Both the position numbers and the translations under genes were made by a program. Source: Candidatus Saccharimonadota bacterium (GTDB taxonomy: Bacteria; Patescibacteriota; Saccharimonadia; Saccharimonadales; UBA10212). From it: 64,000 bases of DNA. How positions within the stretch are numbered: position 1 is the first letter of the stretch; each line of letters begins with the position of its first letter. Below, piece after piece: positions 9,863 through 35,018 of the stretch. The stretch lies in the NCBI GenBank assembly GCA_016176605.1, contig JACOWW010000003.1, positions 30,138-94,137 of the forward strand. The letters run 5' to 3'. Under the pieces are notes generated by a model, which saw only the letters and a program-made list of their open reading frames with translations, searched no databases and had not been told where the DNA came from.

Positions 9863-9938
9863 TGGTGACCCGGGAGGGAATCGAACCCCCAACATTCGCC
9901 TTAGGACGGCGACGTTCTATCCGTTGAACTACCGGGCC
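9863..9938 (-). tRNA. tRNA-Arg (anticodon CCT)
   Basis: Acceptor GGCCCGG/CCGGGTC, D arm GTTC..GAAC, anticodon stem TCGCC/GGCGA with loop GTCCTAA, T arm GGGGG-TTCGATT-CCCTC, encoded CCA. Confidence 0.8.
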
Positions 9939-11711: not shown

Positions 11712-11776
11712 TATGCATGTTGTATATTGTATATGCATGTAGGGGTTAATTTTGTCAGGGCGGACATGAAAAAAAT

Positions 11777-11810
11777 CCACCGGCGGGTACCAGCTGGTAC
11801 CCGCCACCGC
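11777..11810. repeat. 34-bp hairpin-forming repeat, copy 2
   Basis: Still reads HRRVPAGTRHR in frame, as in the recombinase tail; the single difference is synonymous. Confidence 0.85.
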
Positions 11811-11818
11811 ATCAAAGA

Positions 11819-12250
11819 CTAATTACCGACGGCTTTGCCGCGCCGATGCAGAAACTCGGCTGGTTTAACAATTTTGATTCCTTGATAACTCTTTAGTCCC
11901 AGGAGGTGGCGATCGCCGCTGATGATGTAGTCGCAATGACCAATTAGCGCGGTTTCGATGAATTTATTATCGTCCGCGTCGGGGCTGACTTTGACCGTGT
12001 GAGCGCCTAGTTTAACCAGTTCAGCATCCTGACGCAGAGATTCTTCAAGCAGGCCAAGTTGAGGGGTATAGAGCGGGAATTTTTGGATAATTTTACGTCG
12101 TAGCTCACTTAGCCCCTCTGTACTGATAACAGCTTCTATTCCTCTGTCAACGAATAAATCGAGTATCTTGCCCGGATTGCCGCCAAATACTAAGGCAGAT
12201 ATCCAGACATTTGTATCAATTACCACCCTCAGTTTTGGGGCAGTTGTCAT
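11819..12250 (-). CDS. PIN-domain toxin (PIN_3/TIGR00305-like)
   Basis: VVIDTNVWISALVFGG N-terminus; 143 aa; 3 nt downstream of the RHH gene. Confidence 0.7.
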   Translation of the reverse strand: MTTAPKLRVVIDTNVWISALVFGGNPGKILDLFVDRGIEAVISTEGLSELRRKIIQKFPLYTPQLGLLEESLRQDAELVKLGAHTVKVSPDADDNKFIETALIGHCDYIISGDRHLLGLKSYQGIKIVKPAEFLHRRGKAVGN

Positions 12251-12641: not shown

Positions 12642-13364
12642 TTACCTCTTCTGTGCAACAAAAGAATATCCTATAGGAAATCTTTTAATATGTTCTGCTC
12701 TTAATTTCTCGTAAGTTGTTGTCTTAATAAATTGTTTCCAGATTAAGTGGGTGAGTTTATAGGCAACCCTACTCTCAGAAAACATCTTTTGTGTAGCATC
12801 AATAAGAATGTCGGGGCCTCCGCCATACTGATGTAATTCAACAACATCGAGGTTATTATCTTTTGCCAGCGCAGCAAGCGAATATTCTGTGTATCTATAA
12901 TAATCGTTTGGTTGTTCGTGGATCCAGTACATAAATGGTACAAAAATGATAATCTTCCCCGACCTTCTTAAAACCCTTGAACATTCACTAATTAACAAGC
13001 CTGGATCCTTGATGTGCTCGAGAACGTCAGCCAGTAAAACTGTATCAAATTTGTTCTCCTCAAAAGGTAGTCCAAGATTTACATCAGCTATCACATCAAT
13101 ATGCCTTAGGTCATGGAGTGATTTGGCCCAGTCAACACATACCACTGAGTCAGTCTTATCCTTGTACACTCCATAATAAGGTACAGTGCCTGCACCAATG
13201 TCTAATAAATCACCGCTGGCATGCCTCTCAAGTACATCAACATAGTCTTTGCACTCAAGTTTTCCAACATGCTCAGAACGTAAGCCGACAAAACTTTCAT
13301 TGGAATACCATTTTCCATCTCTGAGCAAGATCTTGGATGGTTGCCAACCCTCTTCGTTTTTCAT
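12642..13364 (-). CDS. Class I SAM-dependent methyltransferase
   Basis: LLDIGAGT motif I and VLLADVLEHIKDP. Confidence 0.7.
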   Translation of the reverse strand: MKNEEGWQPSKILLRDGKWYSNESFVGLRSEHVGKLECKDYVDVLERHASGDLLDIGAGTVPYYGVYKDKTDSVVCVDWAKSLHDLRHIDVIADVNLGLPFEENKFDTVLLADVLEHIKDPGLLISECSRVLRRSGKIIIFVPFMYWIHEQPNDYYRYTEYSLAALAKDNNLDVVELHQYGGGPDILIDATQKMFSESRVAYKLTHLIWKQFIKTTTYEKLRAEHIKRFPIGYSFVAQKR

Positions 13365-13488: not shown

Positions 13489-15201
13489 TTAATGAATAAC
13501 ACTATATTTACCCTCGGGCATTTTAAGTACACTATTGATGCCAAGCTCCTGTAAAAATTCGGGGTCGTGTGAAACTACCATTAAAGTGCCTTTATAAGTC
13601 TTAAGTGAGTATGCAAGTTTTTCTCGATATACAGGAGTTAGATAGCTTGTTGGCTCATCTAAAATAATTAAGTTTGGCTTTTTTGCCATTATTACAGCCA
13701 GTTGAGCGCGTGCTTGTTCGTCCTTATATCTAATTTCGTCGACTTTAGTAGAGTAATATTCATTTCCACCGAAACCCCAGTAATCCATAATTTTACCCAC
13801 GCCAACAGATGCGGCTTGAGAACGAATATGGTCACGTAGAGTCATGTCTTCATTTGCTAGCTCTGTATAGGGAGAGTAGTAGCCGAATTTGATGCTTGGC
13901 CCAAATTTCACCTCCCCCTCAACTACCATATCTTTTCGCAGCCCCGCGACTACTTTTAATAGGGTGCTTTTACCGCTCCCGTTTCTGCCGACAATGGCTA
14001 ATCGATCCCCTTTTTGGATTAGCAGATTTTGCAAATCTACCACATTAGTACCTTGATCATCTCCGCTTTCATAAGCAATATCTAATTTCGGTATTTCCAA
14101 GACTTTAAGGCTTCCGCCTGTAGCACTTTCGAAGCTCAGTTTTAATTGACGTTTTCGCGAATTAATAATTTCTAAGCCCGGGAAACTGGAAAGTTCTTGC
14201 TGCATTCTTTCAAGCCGAGTTTGGGCAGCTCTGTAAACTTGAGCCATATCCGCACTTTTCCGTGCCATTGGTTGGAGCTGTTTTACATGAAGAGCCCAAT
14301 TTTCGACTTCCTCACGTTTTTGTTCGGCTTCCTCAACCCAGTGATTTATAATTTTAGCTCTTTCTTCTAAGAAGGTGTTCAAGCCTGTAGAACACTGAAC
14401 CACAAGTCCAGTTTCTGTAATTTCAATGACTTTATTAGCAACGCTTTCGGTGAAAGACATATCGGAAGTAGCAATAACTACTGCCTGTCTAGATCCCTGT
14501 AAATATGTGGCAAGCCATTGCCGTGACTTTACATCTAAATGAACAGAGGGTTCATTCATAATAATTATCCCTGCTTTTGAAAAAAGCGCTCTGCCAACGA
14601 TAATCTTTGAAGTTTGTCCGCTGCTTAATTCGCTAATTAACGTATCTTTAGTAACTTCATCGTGTGGATTTGCTGCCACATTTAATCCAGATATTATTTC
14701 ATTAACTTCATTCTCAGCGCTCCATCCACCCAAGAATTCGTATTGCTCCTGTAACTTACCGACCTTATCTATTATGCTTGGACTAACGGCCATTAGTTCA
14801 TATAATCTGTGAAGTTCTTCAGCAATATCAAGCAAGCCTCTTCCCTCATAAAAATAATCTCTTATGGTCATTGTAGGGTCGACAGCTTCAGGTAGCGAAG
14901 GTTCTACATATTCTATTTTTGAATTTGAAGACCTTTGAATTACGCCAGATCGAGGGCTTATACGACCAGCTAGTATATCAGTAACTTCTTCGCGAGCACG
15001 AACATTGTCACCAATGATTGCAACAACTGAACTTTTATCAATATTAATAGTCACAGGTCGAAAATAATCTCCCTCAATCTCTGTTGCAACGAGTTGCGTA
15101 CCTTCTGCTCGATCTTGCTCACGACGTACCCTGGGAGGACTATCATCTGCATCAGGAACAAAAAGATTGAAATTAAAAGCGGATTTAGGTTTTTTCTCCA
15201 T
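13489..15201 (-). CDS. ABC-F family ATPase (two NBDs, no TM domain), first ATP site degenerate
   Basis: NBD2 is canonical: GRNGSGKSTLLK, ILDEPTSYL. NBD1 has IIGDNVRAREEV in place of Walker A, LSSGQ, and NEPSVHLD. A ~80-aa charged linker joins them. The ATG at 15201 (MEKKPKS) is preferred over 15279. Confidence 0.75.
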   Translation of the reverse strand: MEKKPKSAFNFNLFVPDADDSPPRVRREQDRAEGTQLVATEIEGDYFRPVTINIDKSSVVAIIGDNVRAREEVTDILAGRISPRSGVIQRSSNSKIEYVEPSLPEAVDPTMTIRDYFYEGRGLLDIAEELHRLYELMAVSPSIIDKVGKLQEQYEFLGGWSAENEVNEIISGLNVAANPHDEVTKDTLISELSSGQTSKIIVGRALFSKAGIIIMNEPSVHLDVKSRQWLATYLQGSRQAVVIATSDMSFTESVANKVIEITETGLVVQCSTGLNTFLEERAKIINHWVEEAEQKREEVENWALHVKQLQPMARKSADMAQVYRAAQTRLERMQQELSSFPGLEIINSRKRQLKLSFESATGGSLKVLEIPKLDIAYESGDDQGTNVVDLQNLLIQKGDRLAIVGRNGSGKSTLLKVVAGLRKDMVVEGEVKFGPSIKFGYYSPYTELANEDMTLRDHIRSQAASVGVGKIMDYWGFGGNEYYSTKVDEIRYKDEQARAQLAVIMAKKPNLIILDEPTSYLTPVYREKLAYSLKTYKGTLMVVSHDPEFLQELGINSVLKMPEGKYSVIH

Positions 15202-15344
15202 AAAAGTATATACTACCATTAAATGAGCTATAATACAATTTACTGTTCTGCAGCAGTGGCTGCTGTTGCTAAAGTCCATTTTTGGTGTTATAGTTTAGCT
15301 AATACTGAAGTAATAGATATTCATTACATTACATATTCTCAATC

Positions 15345-15746
15345 ATGAAAACTGTATTTCTTTCTGGACCAATAAAAGGAATCTCTAGAGATGAATCTTT
15401 AGCATGGCGCGATGAGGCAAGAAAGTTATTGAAAGAAAAGTTTAATGTAGTACACGCATTACGTGGCCGAGAAGTGAAAGAAACCTTACCAGATAGCCGT
15501 ATCGCTATTCAACGGGACAAAGCCGACATACTCCGGTCGGATGTGATCTTAATAAACGACACCAGTCCTTCGACTTCGATGATTGGTACCTCAATGGAGG
15601 TTCTTTTTGCATTCGAAAATAATAAATTAGTTGTAGTTTTTGGATCAGCCCATGCTCAAGATTACTGGCTACTATATCATTCACATGTGAGATTCAACAA
15701 TCTTAAAGAAGCTTGTAAATTCTTAAATAAATCCTACCATGATTAA
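15345..15746 (+). CDS. Nucleoside 2-deoxyribosyltransferase-like protein
   Basis: VFLSGPIKG N-terminus and SDVILIND...IGTSMEVLFAFENNKLVVVF fit the NDT-family pattern. Motif-level call only. Confidence 0.45.
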   Translation: MKTVFLSGPIKGISRDESLAWRDEARKLLKEKFNVVHALRGREVKETLPDSRIAIQRDKADILRSDVILINDTSPSTSMIGTSMEVLFAFENNKLVVVFGSAHAQDYWLLYHSHVRFNNLKEACKFLNKSYHD

Positions 15747-16851
15747 ACTTTTCGAGCCATCCGTGGATTTTCGTGAAAATGAAGAGGTTTTAGATGTATT
15801 ACAAAGTGGCACGTTAGCACGAGGCTTAAAAGTTGAAGAGTTCGAACGGGAACTTGCCAGTAGATTAGGCAAAGAACATGCAGTCGCATTATCTAATGGC
15901 TCCTCGGCTTTACATTTAAGCGTACGGTCTATGGGATGGAAAGAGGGGGACAAAATATTTACCTCGCCCTACAGCTTCATTGCAGTCCCTAATAGCTTAC
16001 TATACGAAAAGTGTCAGCCAGTATTTGGTGATGTTGACTATGATCTACAACTAACTCCGGAAAGTACCGTCGATGCACTAGAGAGAGATACGGACATTAA
16101 AGGCGTGATTCTGCCTCACATGTTAGGTAAAGATGCTTGTTTAGAAAAATGGCAGGATGTTTTAGATATCCATCCGGAGGTTAGTGTTATTGAAGACGCA
16201 TCTCAGACATTTGCTCCTAGAGAATACGGCCTAAGCGTAGGTAAGATTGGTTCAGCTGTCATTTATAGTTTTCACCAAAACAAAATAATTACTACTGGGG
16301 GAGAAGGAGGTGGACTTGTGACAAACGATCCTGCTGTTGCTGAAAGAGCACGATCTGAAAGAGAACATGGACTCATGCGCCACCCGGATTGGCAAAATAA
16401 GATTAGCATCGGCTTTAACTACCGCATGACAGAGCTCCAAGCAGCAGTAGGCGTGGCACAGTTAGAAAAGCTAGATGATGTTTTACGTCGCCGAGAGGAT
16501 TTAGCCCAACGCTACACAGAAAGGCTACAAGATAATGCAAATATATACCTTCCAGCAATGGATAGAAAAAGCTGGTTCGGATTCTACATTGAAGCAGAAG
16601 ACGAATCGTTAATTCCAGGTGTTAGTTTTGCGCTTGCAAAAAACAATATTGAATTTAAAGTAAATCCATTTCCTGTCCTCCCGCATTTTAGACACATTAG
16701 AGAATTAGTAGGAGATGACGTGGCAAAGAGATATAACAAACTTGCAAGACGAGCTGCTAGGATAATACTTCTGCCTCTCCATCCAAATCTGAGACAGACC
16801 GACGTTGACTATATTTGTGAGGTTATTGATGATGCAATCACCACTTCTTGA
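15739..16851 (+). CDS. DegT/DnrJ/EryC1/StrS-family sugar aminotransferase (PLP-dependent)
   Basis: SGTLARGLKVEEFE, ALSNGSSALHL and SFHQNKIITTGGEGGGLVTND (PLP lysine context). Confidence 0.85.
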   Translation: MIKLFEPSVDFRENEEVLDVLQSGTLARGLKVEEFERELASRLGKEHAVALSNGSSALHLSVRSMGWKEGDKIFTSPYSFIAVPNSLLYEKCQPVFGDVDYDLQLTPESTVDALERDTDIKGVILPHMLGKDACLEKWQDVLDIHPEVSVIEDASQTFAPREYGLSVGKIGSAVIYSFHQNKIITTGGEGGGLVTNDPAVAERARSEREHGLMRHPDWQNKISIGFNYRMTELQAAVGVAQLEKLDDVLRRREDLAQRYTERLQDNANIYLPAMDRKSWFGFYIEAEDESLIPGVSFALAKNNIEFKVNPFPVLPHFRHIRELVGDDVAKRYNKLARRAARIILLPLHPNLRQTDVDYICEVIDDAITTS

Positions 16852-17578
16852 ATCTGCTATAACGTTCTATGACCAGATAGCGCCCTTCTATTCTCAGGAG
16901 CTAGCGGCTAGGGCAGAATATGTTGGTTCGATCAATAGACTAGTGATTGAAGCACTTTCGAGATCAGGGAGTTCAAAAATAATTGATATTGGATGTGGAA
17001 ATGGCGAACGTGCAAGAACCATAGCAGATAATTTAGATGGTGTTGAAATAACAGGAATAGATACTAGCGCTGAGATGGCAAAACAGGCAAGTTTATACGA
17101 TATTAATGTAATCAACATTGACATAGCCCAAGAGCTCACCCAAGACGATGTAGATTCAGTAGGCGGAAATGATGCCGCTCTTTGCTTATGGAATGTATTA
17201 GGACACATAAAAGAGGCAAAGAGACAAGTGGCGTTAATGAATATGAAGCGTTTACTAGATCCGAACGGACAATTAATGATTGATGTTAATAATCGTCATA
17301 ACCGAGCAGCTTATGGTCTAAGGCCTGCCCTGCGAAACACACTGAAAGACTTTGTATCACGAAACGATAATCGCCACGGTGATTTCCCAATAAGTAGAAA
17401 CGTGGGTGAAAAAACAATTGCTACCGAAACCCACATTTTTTCTTGGCGCGAGCTATTATTGCTATTAGAAAAATCTGGTTTTAATGTGCTGGAAACATAT
17501 AGCGTTAATTACGAAACTGGTGAGATTGAGTGGTTAAAATCAGCCGGACAAATTTTTATAATCGCTGAGAAAGGATAA
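16829..17578 (+). CDS. Class I SAM-dependent methyltransferase
   Basis: IIDIGCGNGERA motif I. ATG at 16829 preferred. Overlaps the aminotransferase 3' end. Confidence 0.7.
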   Translation: MMQSPLLESAITFYDQIAPFYSQELAARAEYVGSINRLVIEALSRSGSSKIIDIGCGNGERARTIADNLDGVEITGIDTSAEMAKQASLYDINVINIDIAQELTQDDVDSVGGNDAALCLWNVLGHIKEAKRQVALMNMKRLLDPNGQLMIDVNNRHNRAAYGLRPALRNTLKDFVSRNDNRHGDFPISRNVGEKTIATETHIFSWRELLLLLEKSGFNVLETYSVNYETGEIEWLKSAGQIFIIAEKG

Positions 17579-17579
17579 T

Positions 17580-18773
17580 ATGCGAGTGTTGGAAGTTTGT
17601 TCATTATATTCGCCCCATGCCGGTGGGGTTGAAACCATGACCCAAGAACTTAATAAACGCATATATGCCGATGGCCATGAGGTTGTAGTGTTAACTAAAA
17701 AATGGCCTGATACCTTACTTGGACATGAAATAATTAATGACGTACCCGTATACCGGCTTCTACCCGCCAATGCTCAAAGCGATTATGAAGCGCTAGCTCG
17801 ATCGACTGCAGATTTAGCGACTGTACTTGCGCCTGACGTTATACATACAATTGGTGTCCGCAGACCTATGCCGATGATTGCTTTGATGCTTGGTCGTCGA
17901 TATCAAGTGCCTGTGCTAGGTACAGTTGTTGGATCTGAGGTACCTGATGTTTATGATACTTCAAATAACTGGATATGGGAGTCAGGTAAAGAAAATATAA
18001 AGCCGTCGCTATTACAATTTGATGTAGTTAATGCGGTCTCAAGAGCAATTGCGACAAACACGATTAGAGTTTTACCTGAGCTGGAGACTGTAGATGTTTT
18101 ACCTGTTGGAATTGATAGTTCCGCATATGATACTATCCCACCTTCCGAAAAATACTTAGCGGGATCATATATTTTTTCCCTTCGTCGTCTAGAATATTCG
18201 AAAGGTGTTGACCTATTGATTGATGCTTATGCATCTTTGATTCAAGAAGGAATTTCATTAGACTTAGTTATCGCCGGGGAGGGGCCCGAAGAGCAAACGC
18301 TACGACATCAAGTAGAGATGTTGGGCATTACAGAGAAGGTCCATTTTTTAGGCAAAGTAGCTCTTGATAATGGTATAGGACTACTTAAATCAGCAGCTAT
18401 GACGGTTGTCCCCTCGCGCTCTGAGGGGGGAGGCCTAATAAACACAGAGGCTAACGCTGTAGGTTGTCCGCTTATCGCAACAGATGTAGGAGGTATCCGT
18501 GAATATACCTCGGGTGATGCCAGTTTCTTGATAGAACCCAATTCTCCAAATGCCATTAAAAAGGCTATAAAGCAAGTATTGGATGATAGAAATTGCACTG
18601 AGAGCAAGGTTCTAGAAGGCAGAAGAATCTCTCGGACGCTTGATTGGGATATAGTCTATGATAGATATAAAGAACTGTATGAAGGGTCTGTCGCTAGTTA
18701 CATACCTCGAGATTTTGTGCCTTGGTCTTCCCAGTCACAACGTCTTAACGAAATTATTGCTGGAACCCCATAA
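17580..18773 (+). CDS. GT-B glycosyltransferase (family 4/1)
   Basis: PSRSEGGGLINTEANAVGCPLIATDVGGIREY, an E-x7-E type C-terminal motif. Confidence 0.8.
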   Translation: MRVLEVCSLYSPHAGGVETMTQELNKRIYADGHEVVVLTKKWPDTLLGHEIINDVPVYRLLPANAQSDYEALARSTADLATVLAPDVIHTIGVRRPMPMIALMLGRRYQVPVLGTVVGSEVPDVYDTSNNWIWESGKENIKPSLLQFDVVNAVSRAIATNTIRVLPELETVDVLPVGIDSSAYDTIPPSEKYLAGSYIFSLRRLEYSKGVDLLIDAYASLIQEGISLDLVIAGEGPEEQTLRHQVEMLGITEKVHFLGKVALDNGIGLLKSAAMTVVPSRSEGGGLINTEANAVGCPLIATDVGGIREYTSGDASFLIEPNSPNAIKKAIKQVLDDRNCTESKVLEGRRISRTLDWDIVYDRYKELYEGSVASYIPRDFVPWSSQSQRLNEIIAGTP

Positions 18774-18781
18774 TAATCAAT

Positions 18782-19720
18782 ATGACAGCTAGTACTCGAA
18801 GTGATTTGGTCAAACTTTTAGATTCACGTCTATCTATTCCAAATACGAATTTGGAAACCGTCCAAGAGAATGACTATAACCTTATATACCGCTACCGGTA
18901 TAAAAATCAAAACTACGTAGTACGCTTAAGTTTGAAGAAAAGCTGTGAAGAGCTTAAGTTTGAAGTTAAGATACTTGAACACTTAAAGAAATATCGCCTC
19001 CCGGTGCCCGCCATATATGAAGTTGACAAACTGGGCAGAAACCCTTTGATGATAATGGAATTCGTGGAAGGATTTCATATTACTAAAGAAAGTGTATCGA
19101 GGACTCTATTTTTAAGATGTTCCAAAAACGCCGGCAGAGTATTGGCAAAAATCCATGTTGCAGGTATAGATTTCAAAAACAATAGTAGTACGGCTACAGT
19201 ACGCCCTCTGAAGGAGATTAATCTAGCGTTGAGCCGAAAAGCCGAAATAAATAGATCATTTTTAGATGGAGATCAGTTTATCAAAGATTTAGTATGGGCT
19301 ACAAATTTCTATAAAGAGACCAAGAACAGTCGAAAAACCATTCTCCATAATGACTATCGACCACAAAATTTACTCTTTAACCAGTCAAATGAAGTGGCGG
19401 CAGTTTTAGATTTTGACTGGGCGTATATAAGTTCAAGTTCTATAAAGGACGTTGCTCACTCTGTTCTTGAATGGTCAATGCCTGATAATCAAATTGTTTG
19501 GGACATGAGAGTAATTAAGGCTTTCTTAACCGGCTATAATAGTTCGTCAATTGAGAAGATAGTTCTAGATAAAACATTATTAGACTGGATGAAATTTTCT
19601 GCATTAAGCGATGCCGCAACATATATCACCAGAACGATGCAACCAGGAAAAACAACAAGGATAAATTCGTATATGTACGAGAAGTTCAAGCTTATAAAGG
19701 TCTTAAGGGGAAAATTATGA
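18782..19720 (+). CDS. APH/choline-kinase-family phosphotransferase
   Basis: ILHNDYRPQNLLF (catalytic loop) and VLDFDWAY (DFD metal-binding motif). Confidence 0.65.
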   Translation: MTASTRSDLVKLLDSRLSIPNTNLETVQENDYNLIYRYRYKNQNYVVRLSLKKSCEELKFEVKILEHLKKYRLPVPAIYEVDKLGRNPLMIMEFVEGFHITKESVSRTLFLRCSKNAGRVLAKIHVAGIDFKNNSSTATVRPLKEINLALSRKAEINRSFLDGDQFIKDLVWATNFYKETKNSRKTILHNDYRPQNLLFNQSNEVAAVLDFDWAYISSSSIKDVAHSVLEWSMPDNQIVWDMRVIKAFLTGYNSSSIEKIVLDKTLLDWMKFSALSDAATYITRTMQPGKTTRINSYMYEKFKLIKVLRGKL

Positions 19721-20688
19721 ATTGCTTTTTATACCTAGAAGGCCTGAAAGAACTCTCGATTAGGTTGCGCGGGGATGAAAAAATACATTTAGGAATAAGA
19801 CCTTACCAGTTCCATGCCGGAAACATATTGAGCATTGGTGCATACCCATATCTTCTATGTGAGGAGGTCAAGAAGTTGGGAAAAACGCCAAGATTTACAT
19901 TTATCATTTCTCTAAACGACTGGGAGCAAGATGAACTAGTGGGTGAAGATATATATCGATACATTTTTGATGTCAGGCCAAAGCATACAACCATACAACA
20001 TCTAAAAGCCGACAATGGCGAGAATATGACTGACCATTGGGAGACCAAAATCAAACATGAATTAAAGCTCATAATTCAAGATTTCCCTGAAGTAAAAATA
20101 GGATATGTTCGTAATTCTGAGCTTAGGTATCACCCGTTAATGCAGGAGGCGTTAATACACACTCTCAATAATAGGCACAAACACAAGGAAATACTACTAA
20201 AGTATTCTAAAAAACCAACAAATGGAACAGATACGCGATTTGCCAATGCTGTCTGTGATAAGTGCTATAACATAGACACAGAGAGCGAGGTGTTACCAAA
20301 AAAACTCATCAGATTAACCTGTACTGAATGCGGTAAAAACGCAATTGGTTCGATACTTAGTTTTAACTACTGGTTTTATCATAAGGAGCTTTTTTCGGCT
20401 CGACTGGCAATTCTTCGTTTTGATGTTTCTATAAGTGGTAGTGACCATTATGCTGAGGGTGATTATGCTACACGTAAAGCCCTTTATGAGTTAATTTATG
20501 AGAAACCCTTCCCGAATTTGAAGATGTTGTTTGCGCCAATATTACTTTCTGATGATGGTCAAAAAATGAGTAAATCAAGAGATAATTATAAATATATACC
20601 CCTTGGAACTATCCTTTCATACGCTAGGACCAACATTAACTCAAGTTTATCTCTGAATAATGCTTCAATAGAAGCTCTATTGAGATGA
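19717..20688 (+). CDS. Truncated class-I lysyl-tRNA-synthetase-like protein (catalytic domain only)
   Basis: HIGH-type motif FHAGN, Cys cluster CDKC...CTEC, SGSDHYAEGDY, and KMSKS (QKMSKSRDN). At 323 aa there is no room for an anticodon-binding domain. Confidence 0.55.
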   Translation: MNCFLYLEGLKELSIRLRGDEKIHLGIRPYQFHAGNILSIGAYPYLLCEEVKKLGKTPRFTFIISLNDWEQDELVGEDIYRYIFDVRPKHTTIQHLKADNGENMTDHWETKIKHELKLIIQDFPEVKIGYVRNSELRYHPLMQEALIHTLNNRHKHKEILLKYSKKPTNGTDTRFANAVCDKCYNIDTESEVLPKKLIRLTCTECGKNAIGSILSFNYWFYHKELFSARLAILRFDVSISGSDHYAEGDYATRKALYELIYEKPFPNLKMLFAPILLSDDGQKMSKSRDNYKYIPLGTILSYARTNINSSLSLNNASIEALLR

Positions 20689-21815
20689 AAAAATATGTTT
20701 TTGTGGCAAATGACTTCGGGTTCGGCCCGATATCACGAGCATTAACTGTCGCTCAAACAATTAAAAAGAAATCTGTTAGTCAAGATGTGAATATTTCGTT
20801 TATTACATCCGGCTTTAGCGACCATTTAATTGATCCTGAGTTTAAAATAATAAAAGTTGCTAATTTAAGGTGTGTTAACAATTTAAGAAAAGTCTTGTCT
20901 GGTCTGGATGATTGTTCAATCATTGTAAGTTCCGCTAATCGTTTTGCATTAACAGTGAGTAAACAGCTAGGACTTAAGACTATTCTTCTAGATGGACTTT
21001 ATTGGTTTTGGCAGAAAAGGCCTAGTGAATATGAAACGGCAGATATTGAGATTTGCTGTGTCCTTCCTTGGCTGGTTGATGAATTTAAATACAAACACAA
21101 AGACAAGATTATCGTTGCGTCACCAATCGAAGTGCCCGCTCACGGACTTGAAAGAAATTCTGTTGCATGGGACAGTACCTTTAATATAGGAGGCTATGTA
21201 AACCCCTTCCATCATCACAGTCATGATGTTTATCTAGATCTCTTAGGAATTGCCTTAAATACAATGCAAAAAAATAATGGCACAATTCTAGTAGCCACTA
21301 GTGAGTATTGCAGGGATTATCTGCAAGAAAATCACCGTTTTGCGAAATCGATCACTTTACAATGCCCTAATAAAGATGAATATCAGGCAATACTTCAAGA
21401 GACTAAGTCTGTATGGCTTAATGGCGGCAGCAACTCTATTTTAGAGGTCCTGGCTTTAGAAATACCTTTTTATTTATTTATGCCCTCAAATTTAAGCCAA
21501 TATAATCTAATTAGCAATATATCTGAATACTTAACTATTCCTGTAGAGAACTTGTGTCCTTTGCTTAGTTATATGAGTAATCACAATCAGTTAAAAGACT
21601 GCGAGAGTGAAGAAGAGGCAATAAAAATAATCGCTGATATGATTAGCAGGCTAATACTTAAAATTATGCCCGAAAATCTGGATCAGCTTATATGGAGTTT
21701 GTACTCTAAGAGTTCAAGTCTTCTAGATAATCAACAAGGGGTAGTAAAACTTCGCAAAGAAGCTCAAAAATCTTTAACCTCATCAGGAATGATCGCTGAT
21801 ATTATTATGAGCTAG
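20685..21815 (+). CDS. Putative GT-B fold glycosyltransferase (GT1/GT28-like C-terminal half)
   Basis: LNGGSNSILEVLALEIPFYLFMP resembles the nucleotide-sugar binding helix of MurG/GT1 enzymes. The N-terminal half is unassigned. Confidence 0.4.
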   Translation: MKKYVFVANDFGFGPISRALTVAQTIKKKSVSQDVNISFITSGFSDHLIDPEFKIIKVANLRCVNNLRKVLSGLDDCSIIVSSANRFALTVSKQLGLKTILLDGLYWFWQKRPSEYETADIEICCVLPWLVDEFKYKHKDKIIVASPIEVPAHGLERNSVAWDSTFNIGGYVNPFHHHSHDVYLDLLGIALNTMQKNNGTILVATSEYCRDYLQENHRFAKSITLQCPNKDEYQAILQETKSVWLNGGSNSILEVLALEIPFYLFMPSNLSQYNLISNISEYLTIPVENLCPLLSYMSNHNQLKDCESEEEAIKIIADMISRLILKIMPENLDQLIWSLYSKSSSLLDNQQGVVKLRKEAQKSLTSSGMIADIIMS

Positions 21816-22097: not shown

Positions 22098-23651
22098 TTG
22101 CCAAGCTGGTTATTTCGTCCGATAATAAATAATAGTGTGAGTGAGAATCTACAGGAAAATCTAGAGGTCCCTTATGCGACTGCGGGAAAAGCTAGCGAGA
22201 TTTCAAAAGCAAGGCGCTATAATTCCCTGGCCCGCTGGGCTGGTACGTTTGTTTTGGCGGCAACTATTGCTGTAGGTGTTGGCGAAAAAACTAACAGAGC
22301 CGCGGCAGGAATGCGCATAACTGGTGGAGAAGATATAGCCTTTCATAAAGGGCCGGCCGGAGTAGACGATTCGGCTAGTGTCGAATTGGCGAATAGCCAG
22401 GTTCTGGAACGTTCTACGGTTGACAGACCGGACGATATTACCGGCGAGCAAGTCCACTTTATTTATGCTGCACCAAAAGATCGGACAGATTTAACAGGGG
22501 ATACAGACGGTCGCGTGGATAGGATTATAGATGATGCACAGTATTTTCTGGACACTAGAGGCGAGGAAGGATTACGTCTTCGAGTAGACACATACCAGGG
22601 TCAGCCTGATATATCTTACATGCAACTAGACAAGACGCAGGCAGAAATTTCATCTATGCCGTCACTTAGTATATTTAATTACGTTATCGAACAGGCGCAC
22701 CAAAGAAGTTTTAGTGACCCCCGAAAAGATAAAATCTACAATGTACTTCTTGGTGGCGTTTCATCTTACCAAAGTCTGTGCGGAGGCAACTACTGGGATA
22801 GTAAGGACGTAGCTCTTGCATACTTGGATAAACAGGAATGCGATTTTAACTATGGGGGAGTAAGTACTCTAGCCTTAACCACATCAAAAAATATTATTCA
22901 AACCATTGGATACCCAAGAACTTGCGCTCAGAATTTTATAGAGGGTGGAAAAATCAATGATTCCCTTGATCTTCTAGCCAACAGGCAAACCAGTGAGTGG
23001 TGGAAGCTAAGAATAGATTCTGATCACAATGATTATTTACGGGCGCCTAACTGCCCGGGCATTGAAACAAGCGGTTTGATGTCCTGGCCACTTAACTCCG
23101 CGAAGAATGGTAATGGAACAATTATTTATTTTAAGAAAAATGCTGACGGGCAGCGTGTTCCTACCACTTTAGACCCCGGAAACCGTTTGCGAGGAGGATC
23201 TGATATTGAAGCTGAATATATCCCTGTCACAGGAGAGAAATTTATTGGTTGGAGCGGTGATTGCAATGATACAGAGGCTCGGGTCTGTGAGTTCTTAGTT
23301 GACAAAGTAATTGACATCCAGGCCAAGGTCGAAAAAACTACCCTTTCCCCACCCAAGGGAGGTTACAGATTGACAGCTACAAGTGAGGGGCCCGGACAAT
23401 TTGAGTGGCTTAAAAAACTAAGGAAGCAGGTGGACTATATTTTTAAGAAAAGTGGCGCTTTGGTGGTGTTAAAACTGGTGCCGGATAATAAAAACTCGGC
23501 TTTAAAGAGTGTCAGCGGCTGTGATAACCAGCAGCTAGACAAGCCTGGTGCCAAAAAATCCGGTGTTTGCTACGAAAAGATTGACCATAAGCTAGAGAGA
23601 ATAAGAGCTGTTTTCGTCAAAGTACCGGTTGTCAGCAAGTTTACTAGCTAA
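22098..23651 (+). CDS. Hypothetical membrane-anchored/secreted protein (517 aa; start uncertain)
   Basis: N-terminal TM segment (WAGTFVLAATIAVGV). C-terminal FIGWSGDC..CEF pattern as in bacterial repeat (Flg_new-like) domains. Confidence 0.45.
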   Translation: MPSWLFRPIINNSVSENLQENLEVPYATAGKASEISKARRYNSLARWAGTFVLAATIAVGVGEKTNRAAAGMRITGGEDIAFHKGPAGVDDSASVELANSQVLERSTVDRPDDITGEQVHFIYAAPKDRTDLTGDTDGRVDRIIDDAQYFLDTRGEEGLRLRVDTYQGQPDISYMQLDKTQAEISSMPSLSIFNYVIEQAHQRSFSDPRKDKIYNVLLGGVSSYQSLCGGNYWDSKDVALAYLDKQECDFNYGGVSTLALTTSKNIIQTIGYPRTCAQNFIEGGKINDSLDLLANRQTSEWWKLRIDSDHNDYLRAPNCPGIETSGLMSWPLNSAKNGNGTIIYFKKNADGQRVPTTLDPGNRLRGGSDIEAEYIPVTGEKFIGWSGDCNDTEARVCEFLVDKVIDIQAKVEKTTLSPPKGGYRLTATSEGPGQFEWLKKLRKQVDYIFKKSGALVVLKLVPDNKNSALKSVSGCDNQQLDKPGAKKSGVCYEKIDHKLERIRAVFVKVPVVSKFTS

Positions 23652-23652
23652 G

Positions 23653-24498
23653 TTATTGATCTATTTTGAGGCTGTCTATCACCTGTTGCCAAACATCTTG
23701 GTTGCGCTGCCAGTTATAGTCGGCTGTAGCAACCATAAAGTAATAAAACGTCCTCTTGCCGACGGCGAACACGAACTTACCTTTCAGATCGGCGTATTTA
23801 CCGGCTGTTTCGCCGGCCCGAAAGTTAGCCTGCCAAGCGTTTTGCTTAATATTTGTTGTAGTTAACGGCACCAGTGCTTGCATTTCAATTTTTAGTTGTT
23901 TTGGAGTGAAAGCTTGCAAAAACTTTTTAAAGGAATCCGCCATGTTTTGATAATCCTTATTATTGGGGTCTTTTAATATTTGGCCGAGGCTCGTAACGTA
24001 GCTATCACTGGCGGCTAAGGCGCTTTGAAGAGATGACATAGCCATATAGGTTAATCCAAACTCTGAGTCCCCCTTAGACACAGTATGTACAAAATAAGCG
24101 CTGGCTAGCCCCTGGGTTTCTTTTTTATCAAGCAACTTGAGTTCTGCAGGTTTTTTGAAACTGACGGCAGCTCCTTGGAGTTTGCTGGGTAGTTTATAAT
24201 CTTCGAGGGTACTATAAGAATATTTGTGCAGCTGGGCAACAAAATAAACGTTGTAAATTTTAAGGTAAACCAGTGCACCGATTAGAGTCACAACAACTAA
24301 AGCGGCTGCCAGCCTATAAAAAGTTGGTTGTTTGGACTTTATCGCTCGAACAATCAAATAAATTACAGCGACTAACCCCAGCGGCGGAAGCAGCAGCCCG
24401 GCAAGCAAGAGTAGCCGCCGGAATTTTGTTCCAATAATAGACGGGGTTTTTTGCGTACTGTCATTTACGATTGGTTGATTTTGCTGGTCTGGCAGCAT
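23653..24498 (-). CDS. Hypothetical membrane-anchored protein (281 aa)
   Basis: ORF with two N-terminal TM segments. No recognised motif. Confidence 0.45.
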   Translation of the reverse strand: MLPDQQNQPIVNDSTQKTPSIIGTKFRRLLLLAGLLLPPLGLVAVIYLIVRAIKSKQPTFYRLAAALVVVTLIGALVYLKIYNVYFVAQLHKYSYSTLEDYKLPSKLQGAAVSFKKPAELKLLDKKETQGLASAYFVHTVSKGDSEFGLTYMAMSSLQSALAASDSYVTSLGQILKDPNNKDYQNMADSFKKFLQAFTPKQLKIEMQALVPLTTTNIKQNAWQANFRAGETAGKYADLKGKFVFAVGKRTFYYFMVATADYNWQRNQDVWQQVIDSLKIDQ

Positions 24499-24520: not shown

Positions 24521-26668
24521 TTAATCGCATGCCCACCTACCAAAGTAAAGCATTACGCCGAAGTTATTAAGCGAGCGTTGCTGCAACGCGCAACCATTAA
24601 CAAATGTAGGTGGGGGTGGGGGTGGGGATGGAGGGGGTGGAGGTGGAGGCGTTGCTGGCCGCCAGGCATCATCGGGCGCAGGTGGAGGAGGCGGGGGTGT
24701 ATAGGTTGGCTGAGGATTATAATTTGTGATTGGTTGGCAATTACCGGGGGAACCTTGCAGACCTTGGGATTCGCATGACGGTTGGTTAGGCTGATTTGTA
24801 TCCGAAGGGTTTGATGCCACGCATTGGCCGGTATCGAGAGTGAACCAATTAGAGTAGCCGCCGCAGCCGCCGGTTGTGGAAACGCACCGGCCATCACTCC
24901 CCCTAGAAAAACCCTGGGCGCAATTGCTGGATGAGATTGGCGTCGATCCAGTGCAATCCCTGACGGAAGCGGAGGCATAACCCCTGTAACTTATATCACT
25001 CAAGGTAGTAACCTTACAGCCTTCTGAATCGTAGTATGTGTTCCAGACGCCGCCTTGGTTGGAGTTAGTACAATCGCCCCACTGTTTTTCGGCATTATAA
25101 ATTGTACAAACGATATCTCCACCGCCTCCGCCGGCGCTAGTGCTACCACTACCACCGCTGGAGCCGGTGCCGCCGGTGCCGCTACCAGAACTGGTCGGAG
25201 CATTGCAGTTAGGTGGAGTTCCGGTGGTGCCAGAGGGGCAAGCCGGTGGCTGACCCGGGCCAGCCACAGCAACGTCTTTTTGGGCGCTGGCTTGACTGGA
25301 ACCTTTCGTACAGGTGATCTTAAATGCGTACGTTTGCGGACCGCTTAAGGCAATTGATTGTTCACTGCCGCCGGCCGGCGCCTTTGCGCCACTCCAGCCG
25401 CCGCTGGCTGGCGTTGTAGTTGCGGCGCAAGAGTCCGGCGAGCCGGTTGTAGTCCACGTTAATGTAACCTTTTCGTTATTGGAAATAGCGTTTTTATCTA
25501 CATTTAAAGTTACGGTGGTGCCGCTAGCGCCAGCCGGAGCTGCTCCAGCTTTAAGGTCCAACTCACAGATTTCACGACTGCTAATGTCAATGAAGACTGG
25601 CTGGTTTATATCTGTGGGCGCTATTAGCCGTTTACAAATTTGGTTGGAACTACGCAAGGCGAATTCCGGTATAGCATTTTCGTCAGGGCTGATGTTGTAG
25701 TCGCGACCAGTAGAAATGCCGCTGGAATCTATCCGCGCCTGCAACCGCTTGACAGCATTACCGGATTTAGCGGTAGCGTCAATTACTGATTGGACATCGA
25801 TGAATTTAAGTACGTTGTTGCTAGAGTCATTAGCCTTTATCTTGACGTTAGTTTGGTTATAAATCGGCGTCAGGCGGACGTAATAATAGTCCGCCGCCGC
25901 CAGGCCGTTGATGATTACGTTACAGTTATAATCGGCCGAGCCTTTAAAGTTACCGGTACTTGGGTTATTCTTGCCGCATTCAATTTTTTGCAAGCCTTCC
26001 GAGCCGTAAGCGACAGTACTTAGCGTGTCATTGGTTTTGGGATTCGGATAAAAGAAATAAGTTTTAGAACCACTGCGGGCGCTATCCAGCGAACCACCTG
26101 TCCCAATTGGGTATAAGCTGACGCGCAGTACCGGCTCGTATTTGTCCAGGCTCCACTTCTTTTCACTGTAGAAAGTTTGGCCGCCTGGCAGTTGGTCAAA
26201 GGTGCGGTCATAACTTTCCCAAGAAAACATGACACTACCGCCACTTACAGACGCCGAGGTCGTCATTTTGATAACTTGCGAGCTTAGCGGCGGCAGTTTT
26301 TGATATACAAGATCAGACGGTGTAGGGTCAATTAATATACAGGTGTACTTGGTATCTTCCGACAGCTTAGCGGCATCTTTTAGCTGCCCGCTGCCAATTA
26401 AGGTATTACAGTCAGTCACGGCTTCGGCCGGGTTTTGCTTGGCATAAGCAATGGCATCGTTGACGGCCGAGCGGGCCGCATAGTTGGCGGCGGCGCTAAT
26501 CGAGCTGGTAGTTGATTGCTGCAGGGAGCGGTTCATCAGCTTGGAAAAACCAATAGCTACTAAACTCATGACAACCACCAAGACTGACACCACGACTATA
26601 GAGGCAATACCGTACTCTTTGTTTTTCACAAAGCCGGACCTCTTAATCCAGTTAAGCATTAGCTTCAT
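24521..26668 (-). CDS. Large PilX-N-like pilus-associated protein with Ig-like, Gly/Ser-rich, Cys-rich and poly-Pro regions
   Basis: N-terminus KEYGIASIVVVSVLVVVMSLVAIGF resembles the PilX N-terminal segment. C-terminus has PPPPPPAP...PPPPPPPSPPPPPP. The ATG at 26668 overlaps the upstream stop (TAATG). Confidence 0.5.
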   Translation of the reverse strand: MKLMLNWIKRSGFVKNKEYGIASIVVVSVLVVVMSLVAIGFSKLMNRSLQQSTTSSISAAANYAARSAVNDAIAYAKQNPAEAVTDCNTLIGSGQLKDAAKLSEDTKYTCILIDPTPSDLVYQKLPPLSSQVIKMTTSASVSGGSVMFSWESYDRTFDQLPGGQTFYSEKKWSLDKYEPVLRVSLYPIGTGGSLDSARSGSKTYFFYPNPKTNDTLSTVAYGSEGLQKIECGKNNPSTGNFKGSADYNCNVIINGLAAADYYYVRLTPIYNQTNVKIKANDSSNNVLKFIDVQSVIDATAKSGNAVKRLQARIDSSGISTGRDYNISPDENAIPEFALRSSNQICKRLIAPTDINQPVFIDISSREICELDLKAGAAPAGASGTTVTLNVDKNAISNNEKVTLTWTTTGSPDSCAATTTPASGGWSGAKAPAGGSEQSIALSGPQTYAFKITCTKGSSQASAQKDVAVAGPGQPPACPSGTTGTPPNCNAPTSSGSGTGGTGSSGGSGSTSAGGGGGDIVCTIYNAEKQWGDCTNSNQGGVWNTYYDSEGCKVTTLSDISYRGYASASVRDCTGSTPISSSNCAQGFSRGSDGRCVSTTGGCGGYSNWFTLDTGQCVASNPSDTNQPNQPSCESQGLQGSPGNCQPITNYNPQPTYTPPPPPPAPDDAWRPATPPPPPPPSPPPPPPTFVNGCALQQRSLNNFGVMLYFGRWACD

Positions 26669-27366
26669 TATAACCCTTTCGAGGCAGTAATGGTCAACTG
26701 AGTTTTTGCACAATACTGGGAGGTAGATAAATTACTGTTGCAGGTAGCTTCCGGGGTTGAGGGGTCATCATCGCCAGTCGCCAGGTCAATACTAGCCGTG
26801 CAAATGCTTTGACAGCCATCGGGGCCAACACTAAAACTATTAAGCCTCATACCATTTCCAAGCAATTCCGTGGGCTTATTGGGCGGAAACTTATTGGGCC
26901 CGTCATAAGGATCCGCACAGCCGCTGCTGCCCGGCACGCTGTCACGCAGCAAGCCGAACTTGTCTGTATCGTTATGGTCTGATAAATTCACCGGGCTATA
27001 AATCATATAAATGTAACGTGCGCTGCCGACACATATATATTTTTTATCGCCTGAAGTTCCGTTAACCACCGGTGTTGACGACGATTGGATGTCCGAGGAA
27101 ACTAAATCCATGATGTTCCTAGCGACTTGTTGGTTCTGGGTCATGTTCACGCCCTTATAAAACAGCCGGCCAATACCCAAAAAAGCCGCCAGCGCAACAA
27201 CTATAACGGTAGAAAAGATGGCTGTTGCCAGCAAAAGTTCAGTTATGGTGAACCCAGCACTTAGCTCCGAGTCGCGCGCAAAGCGCGCTAATATTCGCCG
27301 AGGACGGATAATCTCGGAAGCTAAGTGCTGGGTGAAGCCGTCAGCTTTTTTTTGTATTCCCCTCAT
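26668..27366 (-). CDS. Pseudopilin (class III signal peptide G|FTITE) with an element-derived insertion in the leader
   Basis: AGFTITELLLATAIFSTVIVV. Start taken as MRGIQKK (27366) because it shares the AGCAATAGCATGA start context with the 28712 pilin. The ORF is open to 27426. Confidence 0.6.
   Translation of the reverse strand: MRGIQKKADGFTQHLASEIIRPRRILARFARDSELSAGFTITELLLATAIFSTVIVVALAAFLGIGRLFYKGVNMTQNQQVARNIMDLVSSDIQSSSTPVVNGTSGDKKYICVGSARYIYMIYSPVNLSDHNDTDKFGLLRDSVPGSSGCADPYDGPNKFPPNKPTELLGNGMRLNSFSVGPDGCQSICTASIDLATGDDDPSTPEATCNSNLSTSQYCAKTQLTITASKGL
27251..27332. repeat. Inverted-repeat element (ACCCAGCACTTAGCTCCGAG ... CTCGGAAGCTAAGTGCTGGGT) inside the prepilin leader
   Basis: Arms at 27251-27270 and 27312-27332. 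The same 15-bp termini occur at 38958-38972 and 38992-39006. Confidence 0.8.
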
Positions 27367-28712: not shown

Positions 28713-28815
28713 GCTATTGCTTATAGAATAAATTATTTTGATTATGAATACCACCTCTGTTTGCAGCTAGAGCTTAATTATTTAGCAATTATCAAAGAAC
28801 AACTTTAGGCACTGT

Positions 28816-29763: not shown

Positions 29764-29765
29764 AT

Positions 29766-30551: not shown

Positions 30552-30781
30552 TAGCCTGCCAGCAAGCGAAGCTCGCTGCACTGCTAATGCTTCTGGCGCT
30601 GGAGCACGATTTTTGCCTGCGGTGCTCACGCACCGTAACATTTCTACGGCTCGTTCCGCTCCTCGGCGAGAAATCGCACCCAGCATCCAGCTCTGCAACC
30701 AGGCTTGACCATGCCTCATAAGGGAAGTATAGCATAACCGTTATCTGTTAACGGTTATCCGTGGTTAATGGTTAATGGCGT

Positions 30782-31621: not shown

Positions 31622-31773
31622 TTCCTTTCAGTATACAGATAGTGAGTAACCAAAAAATACTTAACAAGTCAAGCATTTTCTATTTTTAATGAAAAACGAG
31701 CGGATTTTACCCGCCCGTCTTTGCTTATTACTTTCTTGTCCTGAGCGAAGTCGAAAGATTGCTGTTTGCCAAT

Positions 31774-32340: not shown

Positions 32341-32425
32341 TAGTTCTTTCCCCCTTTATGGTGTGCTCGTCGTAGCGTTAATGCTTACATAGTAGTAGTT
32401 CGCGGAAGCTTATGCAATATAATTC

Positions 32426-33772: not shown

Positions 33773-33791
33773 ATAAAAATGCTTCGCATTT

Positions 33792-35000: not shown

Positions 35001-35018
35001 TGTGATCATTATTTCTCC

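Follow-up and report, generated by a model that had tools for sequence, protein, structure and literature searches.

A stand-alone relative of the class-I lysyl-tRNA synthetase catalytic domain, probably a tRNA-independent ligase, in a nucleoside-antibiotic-like gene cassette of Patescibacteria

The subject of this article is a 323-amino-acid protein encoded within a 64,000-nucleotide stretch of DNA from a Candidatus Saccharimonadota bacterium (contig JACOWW010000003.1; the whole stretch is called the window below). The protein, for which we use our own label KRSL, resembles the catalytic domain of class-I lysyl-tRNA synthetase (LysRS-I) and is encoded at positions 19717-20688. Its gene belongs to a cassette of seven, spanning 15345-21815, which are so tightly packed that neighbours either overlap or are separated by no more than 8 nt. 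The order is N133, DegT, methyltransferase, GT4, APH kinase, KRSL and U376, and an ABC-F gene runs divergently at a distance of 65 nt from N133. The genes, with the names used in the text, are the following:

13489-15279, minus strand: ABC-F ATPase, 596 amino acids
15345-15746, plus strand: N133, resembling the nucleoside-5'-monophosphate N-glycosidases MilB/BlsM, of the nucleoside 2-deoxyribosyltransferase superfamily, 133 amino acids
15739-16851, plus strand: DegT, a pyridoxal-phosphate-dependent sugar aminotransferase of the DegT/DnrJ/EryC1 type, 370 amino acids (Pfam 251.7 bits)
16805-17578, plus strand: class-I S-adenosylmethionine (SAM) methyltransferase, with the reading frame taken from a TTG at 16805
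17580-18773, plus strand: GT4, a retaining glycosyltransferase, 397 amino acids
18782-19720, plus strand: small-molecule kinase of the aminoglycoside phosphotransferase (APH) family, 312 amino acids (Pfam APH, 67 bits)
19717-20688, plus strand: KRSL, a LysRS-I-like stand-alone catalytic domain, 323 amino acids, ATG start
20685-21815, plus strand: U376, a GT-B glycosyltransferase resembling the cytosylglucuronate (CGA) synthases BlsD/MilC, 376 amino acids

For the methyltransferase, the start was called 24 nt further in on an identical metagenomic contig, which gives a protein of 249 amino acids.

A preliminary description of this DNA, made from the letters alone, had singled out the 323-amino-acid open reading frame (ORF) on account of four motifs: FHAGN, a cluster of four cysteines, SGSDHYAEGDY and QKMSKSRDN. 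All four are present as described, and in this order:

19810-19824: HIGH-type motif, F32-H-A-G-N36
20254-20331: four-cysteine knuckle, C180/C183/C202/C205
20434-20466: GxDH/EGD region, S240-GSDHYAEGDY250
20560-20586: KMSKS region, Q282-KMSKSRDN290

The translational coupling proposed in the same description is also real on both sides. A four-nucleotide ATGA overlap at 19717-19720 joins the stop of the upstream gene, which is indeed an APH-family kinase, to the start of KRSL, and another at 20685-20688 joins the stop of KRSL to the start of the GT-B-like gene U376. The Pfam model PF01921 (tRNA-synt_1f) matches KRSL with 52.6 bits (gathering score 27), although the aligned part covers amino acids 104-307 only, whereas the NCBIfam equivalog TIGR00467 (lysS_arch) gives 25.9 bits, under its cutoff of 147.55. 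Taken together, the two scores mark KRSL as LysRS-I-like but not as a LysRS of annotated grade. Nor is it a chance ORF, given the Pfam match, 51 homologous clusters and 30 invariant residues.

Those 51 clusters, found in a database search at E<=1.5e-51, consist of stand-alone proteins of 300-355 amino acids, the nearest being 50% identical; nearly all are metagenomic. Among 36 family members, which are 33-50% identical to the query, the 30 invariant residues include GIRPYxxHxGN, NDWE, the four cysteines, W219, H222, R229, GxDH, and the Met and second Lys of xMSKS. In particular, H33, G35, N36, G241, D243, H244, M284, K286 and N290 are the same in all 36. A search of the Protein Data Bank (PDB) with the single KRSL sequence gave noise only; informative matches came from the family profile and from searching by fold. 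The family profile ranks the LysRS-I of P. horikoshii (1irx) first among solved structures (E 2.3e-5). An AlphaFold2 model built from the family alignment (pLDDT 94.8, pTM 0.91) finds the same protein as its top Foldseek match (E 1.9e-14, TMq 0.67, 19% identity), followed at E 1e-8 to 1e-6 by CysRS, MetRS, GluRS, TyrRS and the mycothiol ligase MshC. Thus profile comparison and structure prediction, two of the checks suggested earlier, both place KRSL with LysRS-I, and the view that it is a paralogue of the class-I LysRS catalytic domain is borne out. The extent of the family follows from HMMER, run exhaustively against 1.84 billion representative proteins: there were 152 matches at E<=1e-3, of which 101 reach E<=1e-10. 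On the family profile the members score about 100-460 bits, against 35-46 bits for genuine LysRS-I proteins (495-559 amino acids). The family is therefore small and sharply bounded, and it comes almost entirely from Patescibacteria.

What KRSL has kept of its parent and what it has lost can be judged once it is aligned with seven LysRS-I proteins of full length. Both share the Rossmann catalytic fold, HxGN, GxDH, a KMSKS-type loop and a CxxC...CxxC knuckle. True LysRS-I, unlike KRSL, has about 500-550 amino acids, whereas KRSL has 323 and sits in a biosynthetic operon. It terminates about 35 residues past KMSKS, so that roughly 200 residues, the C-terminal anticodon-binding half, are missing; the earlier judgement that it is too short to contain that domain was correct. 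The missing half is not encoded next door either, since the flanking genes specify an APH-family kinase and a GT-B glycosyltransferase, and none of the ORFs scanned in the window encodes a canonical LysRS.

The amino-acid pocket has changed as well. In the P. horikoshii enzyme we take Glu41, Trp218, His240, Tyr268 and Phe270 to be the lysine contacts, an assignment that agrees in position with the 1irx alignment. Of these five only His240 is retained, as H244 of KRSL. The Glu41 position is occupied by Ala, Thr or Ser in the KRSL family, Trp218 by the invariant His222, Tyr268 by Phe in 26 of 36 members (Tyr persists in 9), and Phe270 by Pro in 29 of 36. In addition, the first Ser of the SPSG motif has become an invariant Arg28. 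With four of the five presumed lysine-contacting positions altered, the substrate is probably not lysine. The ATP signatures are invariant, the C-terminal half is lost and the pocket is remodelled; hence KRSL very probably still binds ATP and forms an acyl-adenylate, while recognition of tRNA(Lys) is not expected and recognition of lysine probably is not either. These observations bear directly on the simplest explanation one may think of, namely that KRSL is a functional or antibiotic-resistant copy of LysRS, be it a split enzyme or a synthetase that confers self-resistance. The Pfam placement would agree with it, and some sources do name relatives of KRSL "lysyl-tRNA synthetase class I". We nevertheless regard it as extremely unlikely, considering that no anticodon-binding domain exists in KRSL or in the adjoining genes, that its score is far under the lysS_arch cutoff, that the pocket differs across the whole family, and that this family is separate and tightly bounded.

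The four cysteines deserve a separate comment. BlsK, the aminoacyltransferase of the blasticidin pathway, reportedly carries a [3Fe-4S] cluster, and one may ask whether the four invariant cysteines of KRSL serve the same purpose. We set this Fe-S reading aside: C180, C183, C202 and C205 align with cysteines of true LysRS-I, and the simplest view is that they are an inherited metal knuckle. The question belongs to a broader alternative, in which KRSL is an aminoacyl-tRNA-dependent transferase that moves an aminoacyl group from a tRNA charged by the host cell to a nucleoside, in the manner of AcmF, SbzA or BlsK/MilH. The blasticidin and mildiomycin pathways do employ a tRNA-dependent aminoacyltransferase. 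Further, according to a 2026 review, the synthetase-like enzymes AcmF (AlaRS-like) and SbzA (IleRS-like), as well as the cyclodipeptide synthases, are aminoacyl-tRNA-dependent, and this is how the synthetase-like enzymes of nucleoside natural products are described (PMC12945691). These proteins are comparable to KRSL in being derived from synthetases and in attaching amino acids to small molecules, nucleosides included. The likeness ends there. AcmF has reportedly lost most of the residues for ATP binding and amino-acid activation (PMC12945691), whereas HxGN, GxDH and xMSKS are invariant in KRSL, whose parent family is LysRS-I. KRSL also lacks an anticodon-binding domain, its cysteines probably come from its LysRS-I ancestor and do not form a new Fe-S site, and the 152 profile matches contain no actinomycete protein and no named BlsK/MilH-like protein, so that homology to BlsK/MilH looks unlikely. 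A transferase of this kind is, in our opinion, an unlikely explanation. Pur6, the synthetase of the puromycin type, is unrelated to KRSL in fold.

Some relatives of KRSL carry additional domains. The metagenomic protein P0053 (652 amino acids) is a natural fusion in which an APH-type kinase (amino acids 22-302), sharing 33% identity with the kinase of the window, is joined to KRSL (amino acids 320-635). Together with the translational coupling of the two genes, this fusion suggests that the kinase and KRSL act on the same molecule. Two other metagenomic proteins are worth recording. P0106 (619 amino acids) combines a divergent KRSL-like domain with a C-terminal alpha/beta hydrolase (Abhydrolase_3) and comes from an organism that looks GC-rich, and P0055 (524 amino acids) has a 200-residue N-terminal extension with no Pfam match but with a weak likeness to the catalytic motif of N133 (hhalign probability 40%). 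An N-terminal extension of P0060 was considered and rejected as a real domain, since it resembles a miscalled low-complexity ORF.

The partner proteins are distant from characterised families. N133 matches the Pfam models PF05014 and PF15891 below their gathering scores, and its distant relatives match both of these deoxyribosyltransferase domains. Compared with the PDB, the N133 family profile fits best to BcmB, a CMP N-glycosidase (4jen, E 0.022), in an alignment that includes the catalytic Glu. The N-terminal FLSGPMRGI agrees with the published motif of MilB/BlsM homologues, F-L-(G/A)-(G/A)-P-F-(R/K)-X-L, and Glu85, within GTAME, stands at the place of the catalytic Glu103 of MilB. The AlphaFold2 model (pLDDT 94.2) leads Foldseek to 2'-deoxyribosyltransferase (E 2.4e-5, TMq 0.76) and MilB (E 2.8e-5, TMq 0.74), then to DNPH1 and BcmB. 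By fold, profile and motif N133 thus resembles the MilB/BlsM nucleoside-monophosphate N-glycosidases; its base specificity is a prediction.

For U376, 23 of 25 orthologues match the NCBIfam model TIGR04467 (CGA_synthase, hydroxymethylcytosylglucuronate/cytosylglucuronate synthase) as their top or only family, with a best E of 3e-17. The window copy reaches E 0.043, and all orthologues score far under the 300-bit cutoff. U376 has no Pfam match, and comparison with the PDB gives a weak GT1 (YjiC/OleD) C-terminal motif. The closest solved relatives of DegT are the 4-aminotransferases of NDP-4-keto-sugars (perosamine synthetase, ArnB and the PseC type), and those of GT4 are BshA and MshA, small-molecule GlcNAc transferases. 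The APH kinase weakly matches the NCBIfam models of homoserine kinase II and APH(3') and has no PDB match at E<=0.001. On the NCBIfam model of ribosomal-protection-like ABC-F proteins, which is the best one for the window ABC-F, the window copy scores 198.7 bits and an orthologue in locus L021 (see below) 346.6 bits, with a cutoff of 380. It had been said before that KRSL lies in a sugar-modification operon. The sugar genes are there, but the generic label does not do justice to the locus, which can be described more closely as a nucleoside cluster resembling those of blasticidin and mildiomycin and equipped with an ABC-F.

We then have to ask whether these partners belong together. A scan of GTDB with one genome per species found 26 loci with KRSL; with metagenomic contigs added, 31 independent loci could be compared. 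Nearly all hosts of the GTDB loci are Patescibacteria (Saccharibacteria, Paceibacterota, Shapiro-, Nomura-, Beckwith- and Staskawicz-bacteria), and a few are metagenome-assembled genomes (MAGs) labelled otherwise. The partners found near KRSL are:

U376: 27 of 31 loci
DegT: 26 of 31 loci
N133: 25 of 31 loci
ABC-F within about 6 kb, varying in orientation and subtype: 22 of 31 loci
methyltransferase: 21 of 31 loci
GT4: 20 of 31 loci
APH kinase of the window type: 18 of 31 loci
APH(3')-like kinase: 4 further loci, which makes 22 of 31 with any kinase

Absences are mostly due to contig ends. Given that protein identity between loci is only 25-60%, the linkage must be maintained by selection. Most loci share with the window an architecture that we call type A (N133-DegT-methyltransferase-GT4-APH-KRSL-U376). 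In type B, represented by loci L021, L024, L026 and L029, ABC-F, N133, KRSL and U376 are retained and the remainder is replaced by a FemAB-like GNAT protein, a radical SAM protein, a short and a full-length DegT, a 312-amino-acid protein and an APH(3')-like kinase. The radical SAM protein is a relative of BlsE: it matches the cytosylglucuronate decarboxylase structures 7vob/7voc at E 2.6e-38 (next structure 8.5e-8) and scores 168 bits on TIGR04466 (rSAM_BlsE), twice the next family, with a cutoff of 400. All four type-B loci have this protein, and no type-A locus does, the window included. Beside it lies the FemAB-like GNAT (PF13480; L021 12082-13110, L026 9082-10119), which is a candidate for a transferase that would draw on aminoacyl-tRNA and attach a second residue. 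The KRSL sequences of type B form one clade, and the candidate pocket residues are identical in all types.

A few loci differ from both arrangements. In L036 a GFO/IDH/MocA oxidoreductase and a TIM-barrel enzyme stand beside DegT, together with N133, KRSL and two ABC-F genes. In L007 (5650-9432) genes for a QueC-like PP-loop protein, a Ham1-like NTPase and a radical SAM protein come before a minimal trio of N133, KRSL and a glycosyltransferase, which lies amid polysaccharide genes; a Ham1-like gene is also found 3' of KRSL in L026. Finally, L008 (10001-10951, from a Saccharibacteria MAG) contains the closest genome-derived KRSL, with 50% identity, and no cassette gene within 10 kb; this lone KRSL may be a remnant or have a different role.

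The partners recall a known group of pathways. The published outline for mildiomycin and blasticidin runs from a nucleotide hydrolase through CGA synthase and BlsE/MilG to a DegT aminotransferase and aminoacyl transfer. The clusters for blasticidin S, mildiomycin and gougerotin (BlsM/MilB, BlsD/MilC, BlsH/MilD) and the KRSL cassette have in common a nucleoside-monophosphate N-glycosidase, a CGA-synthase-like glycosyltransferase, a DegT protein and an enzyme that adds an aminoacyl group; a counterpart of BlsE/MilG is present in the type-B loci only. There are also differences. The hosts of KRSL are Patescibacteria and not actinomycetes, the components are distant and score below the equivalog cutoffs, GT4, an APH-type kinase and ABC-F are added, and the aminoacyl step would be carried out by a ligase derived from LysRS-I. 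A compact relative of these pathways within CPR (Candidate Phyla Radiation) bacteria is the best-supported reading of the cassette as judged from its genes. Its product would be an amino-hexose nucleoside with a base of the cytosine type, or a related one, and with an aminoacyl group attached.

Starting from what we observe (the fold and motifs of KRSL, the limits of its family, the linkage of the genes and the relationships of the partners), we propose the following scheme. N133 would release a free pyrimidine base from a nucleotide, and U376 would couple this base to a UDP-sugar. DegT would install the amine that KRSL would later acylate. The keto group that DegT requires could be provided by the BlsE-like radical SAM protein in type B and possibly by the GFO/IDH/MocA oxidoreductase in L036, while type A may depend on an NDP-4-keto-sugar made elsewhere in the genome. 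The methyltransferase and GT4 may decorate the product. The kinase might phosphorylate the product or an intermediate, so as to protect the producer or to supply the pathway. KRSL could act on a phosphorylated, detoxified intermediate, which is the case in some antibiotic pathways, or else the kinase might prepare the acceptor; the APH-type kinase and ABC-F together would protect the ribosomes of the producer (self-resistance).

As to KRSL itself, we think of a duplicated catalytic domain of class-I LysRS that would have shed its anticodon-binding domain and turned into a ligase for small molecules. It would bind ATP through HxGN and xMSKS, adenylate a carboxylate, most likely that of an amino acid other than lysine, and pass the acyl group to the amine of an amino-hexose nucleoside with formation of an amide, as MshC does with its own acceptor. 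Arg28, K223, R229 and R253 could, speculatively, bind phosphate or carboxylate. We give about even chances to the proposal that KRSL is an ATP-dependent ligase in the making of a peptidyl nucleoside of the cytosine type, whose amino-sugar it would furnish with an amino acid, probably one other than lysine. Its more general part, activation of an amino acid and transfer to an acceptor other than tRNA by analogy with MshC, had already been put forward in the preliminary description, and it fits the invariant ATP-site motifs, the setting in a small-molecule pathway and the natural fusion of kinase and ligase.

The comparison with MshC can also be turned into a different explanation. MshC is a CysRS-like mycothiol ligase that joins an amino acid to the amine of an amino-sugar, in a pathway where MshA is its partner. 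Like KRSL, it is a paralogue of the catalytic domain of an aminoacyl-tRNA synthetase of class I, having intact ATP motifs and a GT4 partner, and the GT4 of the window is itself closest to BshA and MshA. One can therefore imagine that the product of the cassette is a metabolite other than an antibiotic, or an envelope glycoconjugate, for example an aminoacyl-amino-sugar resembling mycothiol or bacillithiol, with KRSL as a ligase of the MshC type and ABC-F as a mere housekeeping neighbour. MshC is indeed among the fold matches of KRSL, the trio of L007 lies amid polysaccharide genes (Wzy, Bac_transf, GT2), and the partner matches are all under the curated cutoffs. Several facts speak for a nucleoside pathway instead. 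In 22 of 31 loci KRSL has an ABC-F gene no more than about 6 kb away, in varied orientations and subtypes; the N-glycosidase, the CGA-synthase-like glycosyltransferase and the BlsE-like radical SAM protein are signatures of a cytosyl-hexose nucleoside pathway; the rare, patchy distribution and the low-GC island (described below) are unlike a core cofactor; and the cassette has no flippase or membrane genes. Compared with MshC, KRSL derives from LysRS-I and not from CysRS (Foldseek matches to CysRS and MshC range from E 2.5e-8 to 1.6e-6, MshC itself having E 1.6e-6, against 1.9e-14 for 1irx). Unlike the mycothiol pathway, the cassette contains an N-glycosidase, a CGA-synthase-like glycosyltransferase, a kinase and ABC-F, and no deacetylase or acetyltransferase. 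On balance we hold this explanation to be unlikely.

A second variant keeps the nucleoside but changes the acid. KRSL might adenylate a carboxylate that is not an amino acid, for instance C6' of an intermediate of the cytosylglucuronic acid type, and convert it to a carboxamide or ester, comparable to what gougerotin carries at C6', a carboxamide. The partner resembling CGA synthase points to an intermediate with a uronic acid, and the remodelled lysine pocket with its invariant Arg28 and the conserved basic residues K223, R229 and R253 could accommodate one. The acidic residues D68, E70, E247 and D249, on the other hand, are invariant or nearly so in the family and could bind an alpha-ammonium group, and we know of no precedent for a class-I synthetase domain that activates a sugar acid. 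This explanation and the aminoacyl ligase cannot be separated from sequence alone, but in our opinion the sugar acid is quite unlikely.

The truncation of KRSL invites yet another comparison. GluQRS (YadB) and EpmA/PoxA are the classical truncated synthetase paralogues; they too lack an anticodon-binding domain, activate their amino acid with ATP and serve non-canonical acceptors. If KRSL were of this kind, it would modify a macromolecule of translation (a nucleoside of tRNA, EF-P or the ribosome), and ABC-F would be its functional partner. The conserved linkage to ABC-F and the QueC-like and radical SAM genes close to KRSL in L007 may be quoted in favour. We consider it very unlikely. The acceptors of GluQRS and EpmA are macromolecules (queuosine of tRNA-Asp, EF-P), the two enzymes stem from class-I GluRS and class-II LysRS, and they are found outside small-molecule clusters. 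The conserved partners of KRSL, in contrast, are small-molecule enzymes (an N-glycosidase of nucleoside monophosphates, sugar glycosyltransferases, a sugar aminotransferase, an APH-type kinase). KRSL has no RNA- or protein-binding domain, with only about 35 residues after KMSKS, and its occurrence is rare and island-like.

The ligase proposal has its own weak points, and it is fair to collect them here. The partner scores are below the curated cutoffs (rSAM_BlsE 168 of 400 bits, ABC-F 198.7 of 380, N133 under the gathering scores, CGA_synthase at E 0.043 for the window copy). The type-A cluster of the window contains neither a homologue of BlsE nor an oxidoreductase that would make the keto substrate of DegT. 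In type B the FemAB-like GNAT could be the actual enzyme of aminoacyl transfer, and KRSL would then add another residue or have another role. Retention of the HIGH and KMSKS motifs indicates binding of ATP and tells us neither which carboxylate is activated nor which nucleophile accepts it. ABC-F proteins also serve as housekeeping translation factors, and in L008 KRSL occurs with no cassette. The residue numbers of the LysRS-I pocket are partly those of the literature, checked only for positional consistency with the 1irx alignment. More generally, the catalytic steps, the identity of the substrates, the order of reactions and any antibiotic activity are deduced from homology and linkage, and the product is a prediction.

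The genomic surroundings of the cassette are relevant to its possible mobility. The cassette block has a GC content of about 0.39, against 0.48-0.50. Directly upstream of the low-GC block (about 12-23.6 kb) lie a tRNA gene, a recombinase gene and a PIN-domain gene, an arrangement that suggests a genomic island. The low-GC block also contains a second methyltransferase, a possible accessory gene, whose orthologue adjoins KRSL in L004, L009 and L010. The features concerned are:

9863-9938: tRNA-Arg(CCT)
10634-11575: tyrosine recombinase
11819-12250: PIN-domain gene
12642-13364, minus strand: second SAM methyltransferase, 240 amino acids (Pfam Methyltransf_11)

A search for att-like direct repeats bracketing the island found none, only a local repeat. 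This is a 44-nt element in two copies with 91% identity (11525-11568 and 11772-11815) and an internal GC-rich palindrome, GGCGGGTACC...GGTACCCGCC; the first copy overlaps the 3' end of the recombinase gene and the second stands just before the PIN gene. Scanning 12-24.6 kb for promoters and terminators gave counts equal to the shuffled expectation. Two ORFs downstream of U376 were considered as members of the cassette and rejected, U517 (22098-23651, plus strand, 517 amino acids) and an ORF of 281 amino acids (23653-24498, minus strand), neither of which has a family match or an orthologue in the related loci. Further on there is an ORF of 730 amino acids (24521-26713, minus strand) with no Pfam or NCBIfam match, and then a type-IV pilus region (27420-41383) with PilB-like and PilT-like ATPases, PilC (T2SSF) and PilM. 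A gene of this region (27420-28754) encodes a 444-amino-acid protein with an N-terminal pilin-type methylation motif and a polysaccharide-lyase domain. Besides these pilus genes, the window encodes a TGT protein with 72-75% identity to proteins assigned to Saccharimonadales (TM7), the order of the host. A second low-GC stretch (0.39-0.42) occupies positions 42000-47000 of the window.

What is new here should be distinguished from what is not. Ligases resembling MshC and clusters resembling that of blasticidin are already known kinds. The novelty lies in a family of ligases that is derived from LysRS-I, probably independent of tRNA, tied to a nucleoside-antibiotic-like cluster and patchily distributed in Patescibacteria. 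We found no literature on such clusters in CPR bacteria or on a LysRS-like ligase in peptidyl-nucleoside pathways, within a literature coverage that was incomplete. If our reading is true, class-I LysRS would join the parents of synthetase-derived ligases, next to CysRS for MshC, GluRS for GluQRS and class-II LysRS for EpmA. KRSL would then be a compact catalyst of amide bonds, with 323 amino acids, possibly useful for the synthesis of aminoacyl nucleosides. The cluster of the window measures only about 8 kb, and the natural variants of types A and B allow the pathway to be compared with and without the BlsE step.

For the biology of the hosts the consequences would be larger. The ultra-small CPR bacteria, and Saccharibacteria among them, have genomes of about 1 Mb, live as obligate epibionts and are usually deemed biosynthetically poor; to our knowledge, their chemical interactions with hosts are essentially unexplored, as is their specialised metabolism. 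If true, our reading would give these organisms a conserved nucleoside-antibiotic-like pathway equipped with self-resistance. Tentatively, and with chances somewhat short of even, we suggest that Patescibacteria carry horizontally mobile, previously undescribed clusters that make ribosome-targeting peptidyl nucleosides resembling blasticidin and gougerotin, with the peptide bond formed by a new class of enzyme, a tRNA-independent amide ligase derived from LysRS-I that works with an APH-type kinase and is in some cases fused to it, and that the product may serve these epibionts, in dealing with hosts or competitors, as a weapon or as a control agent.

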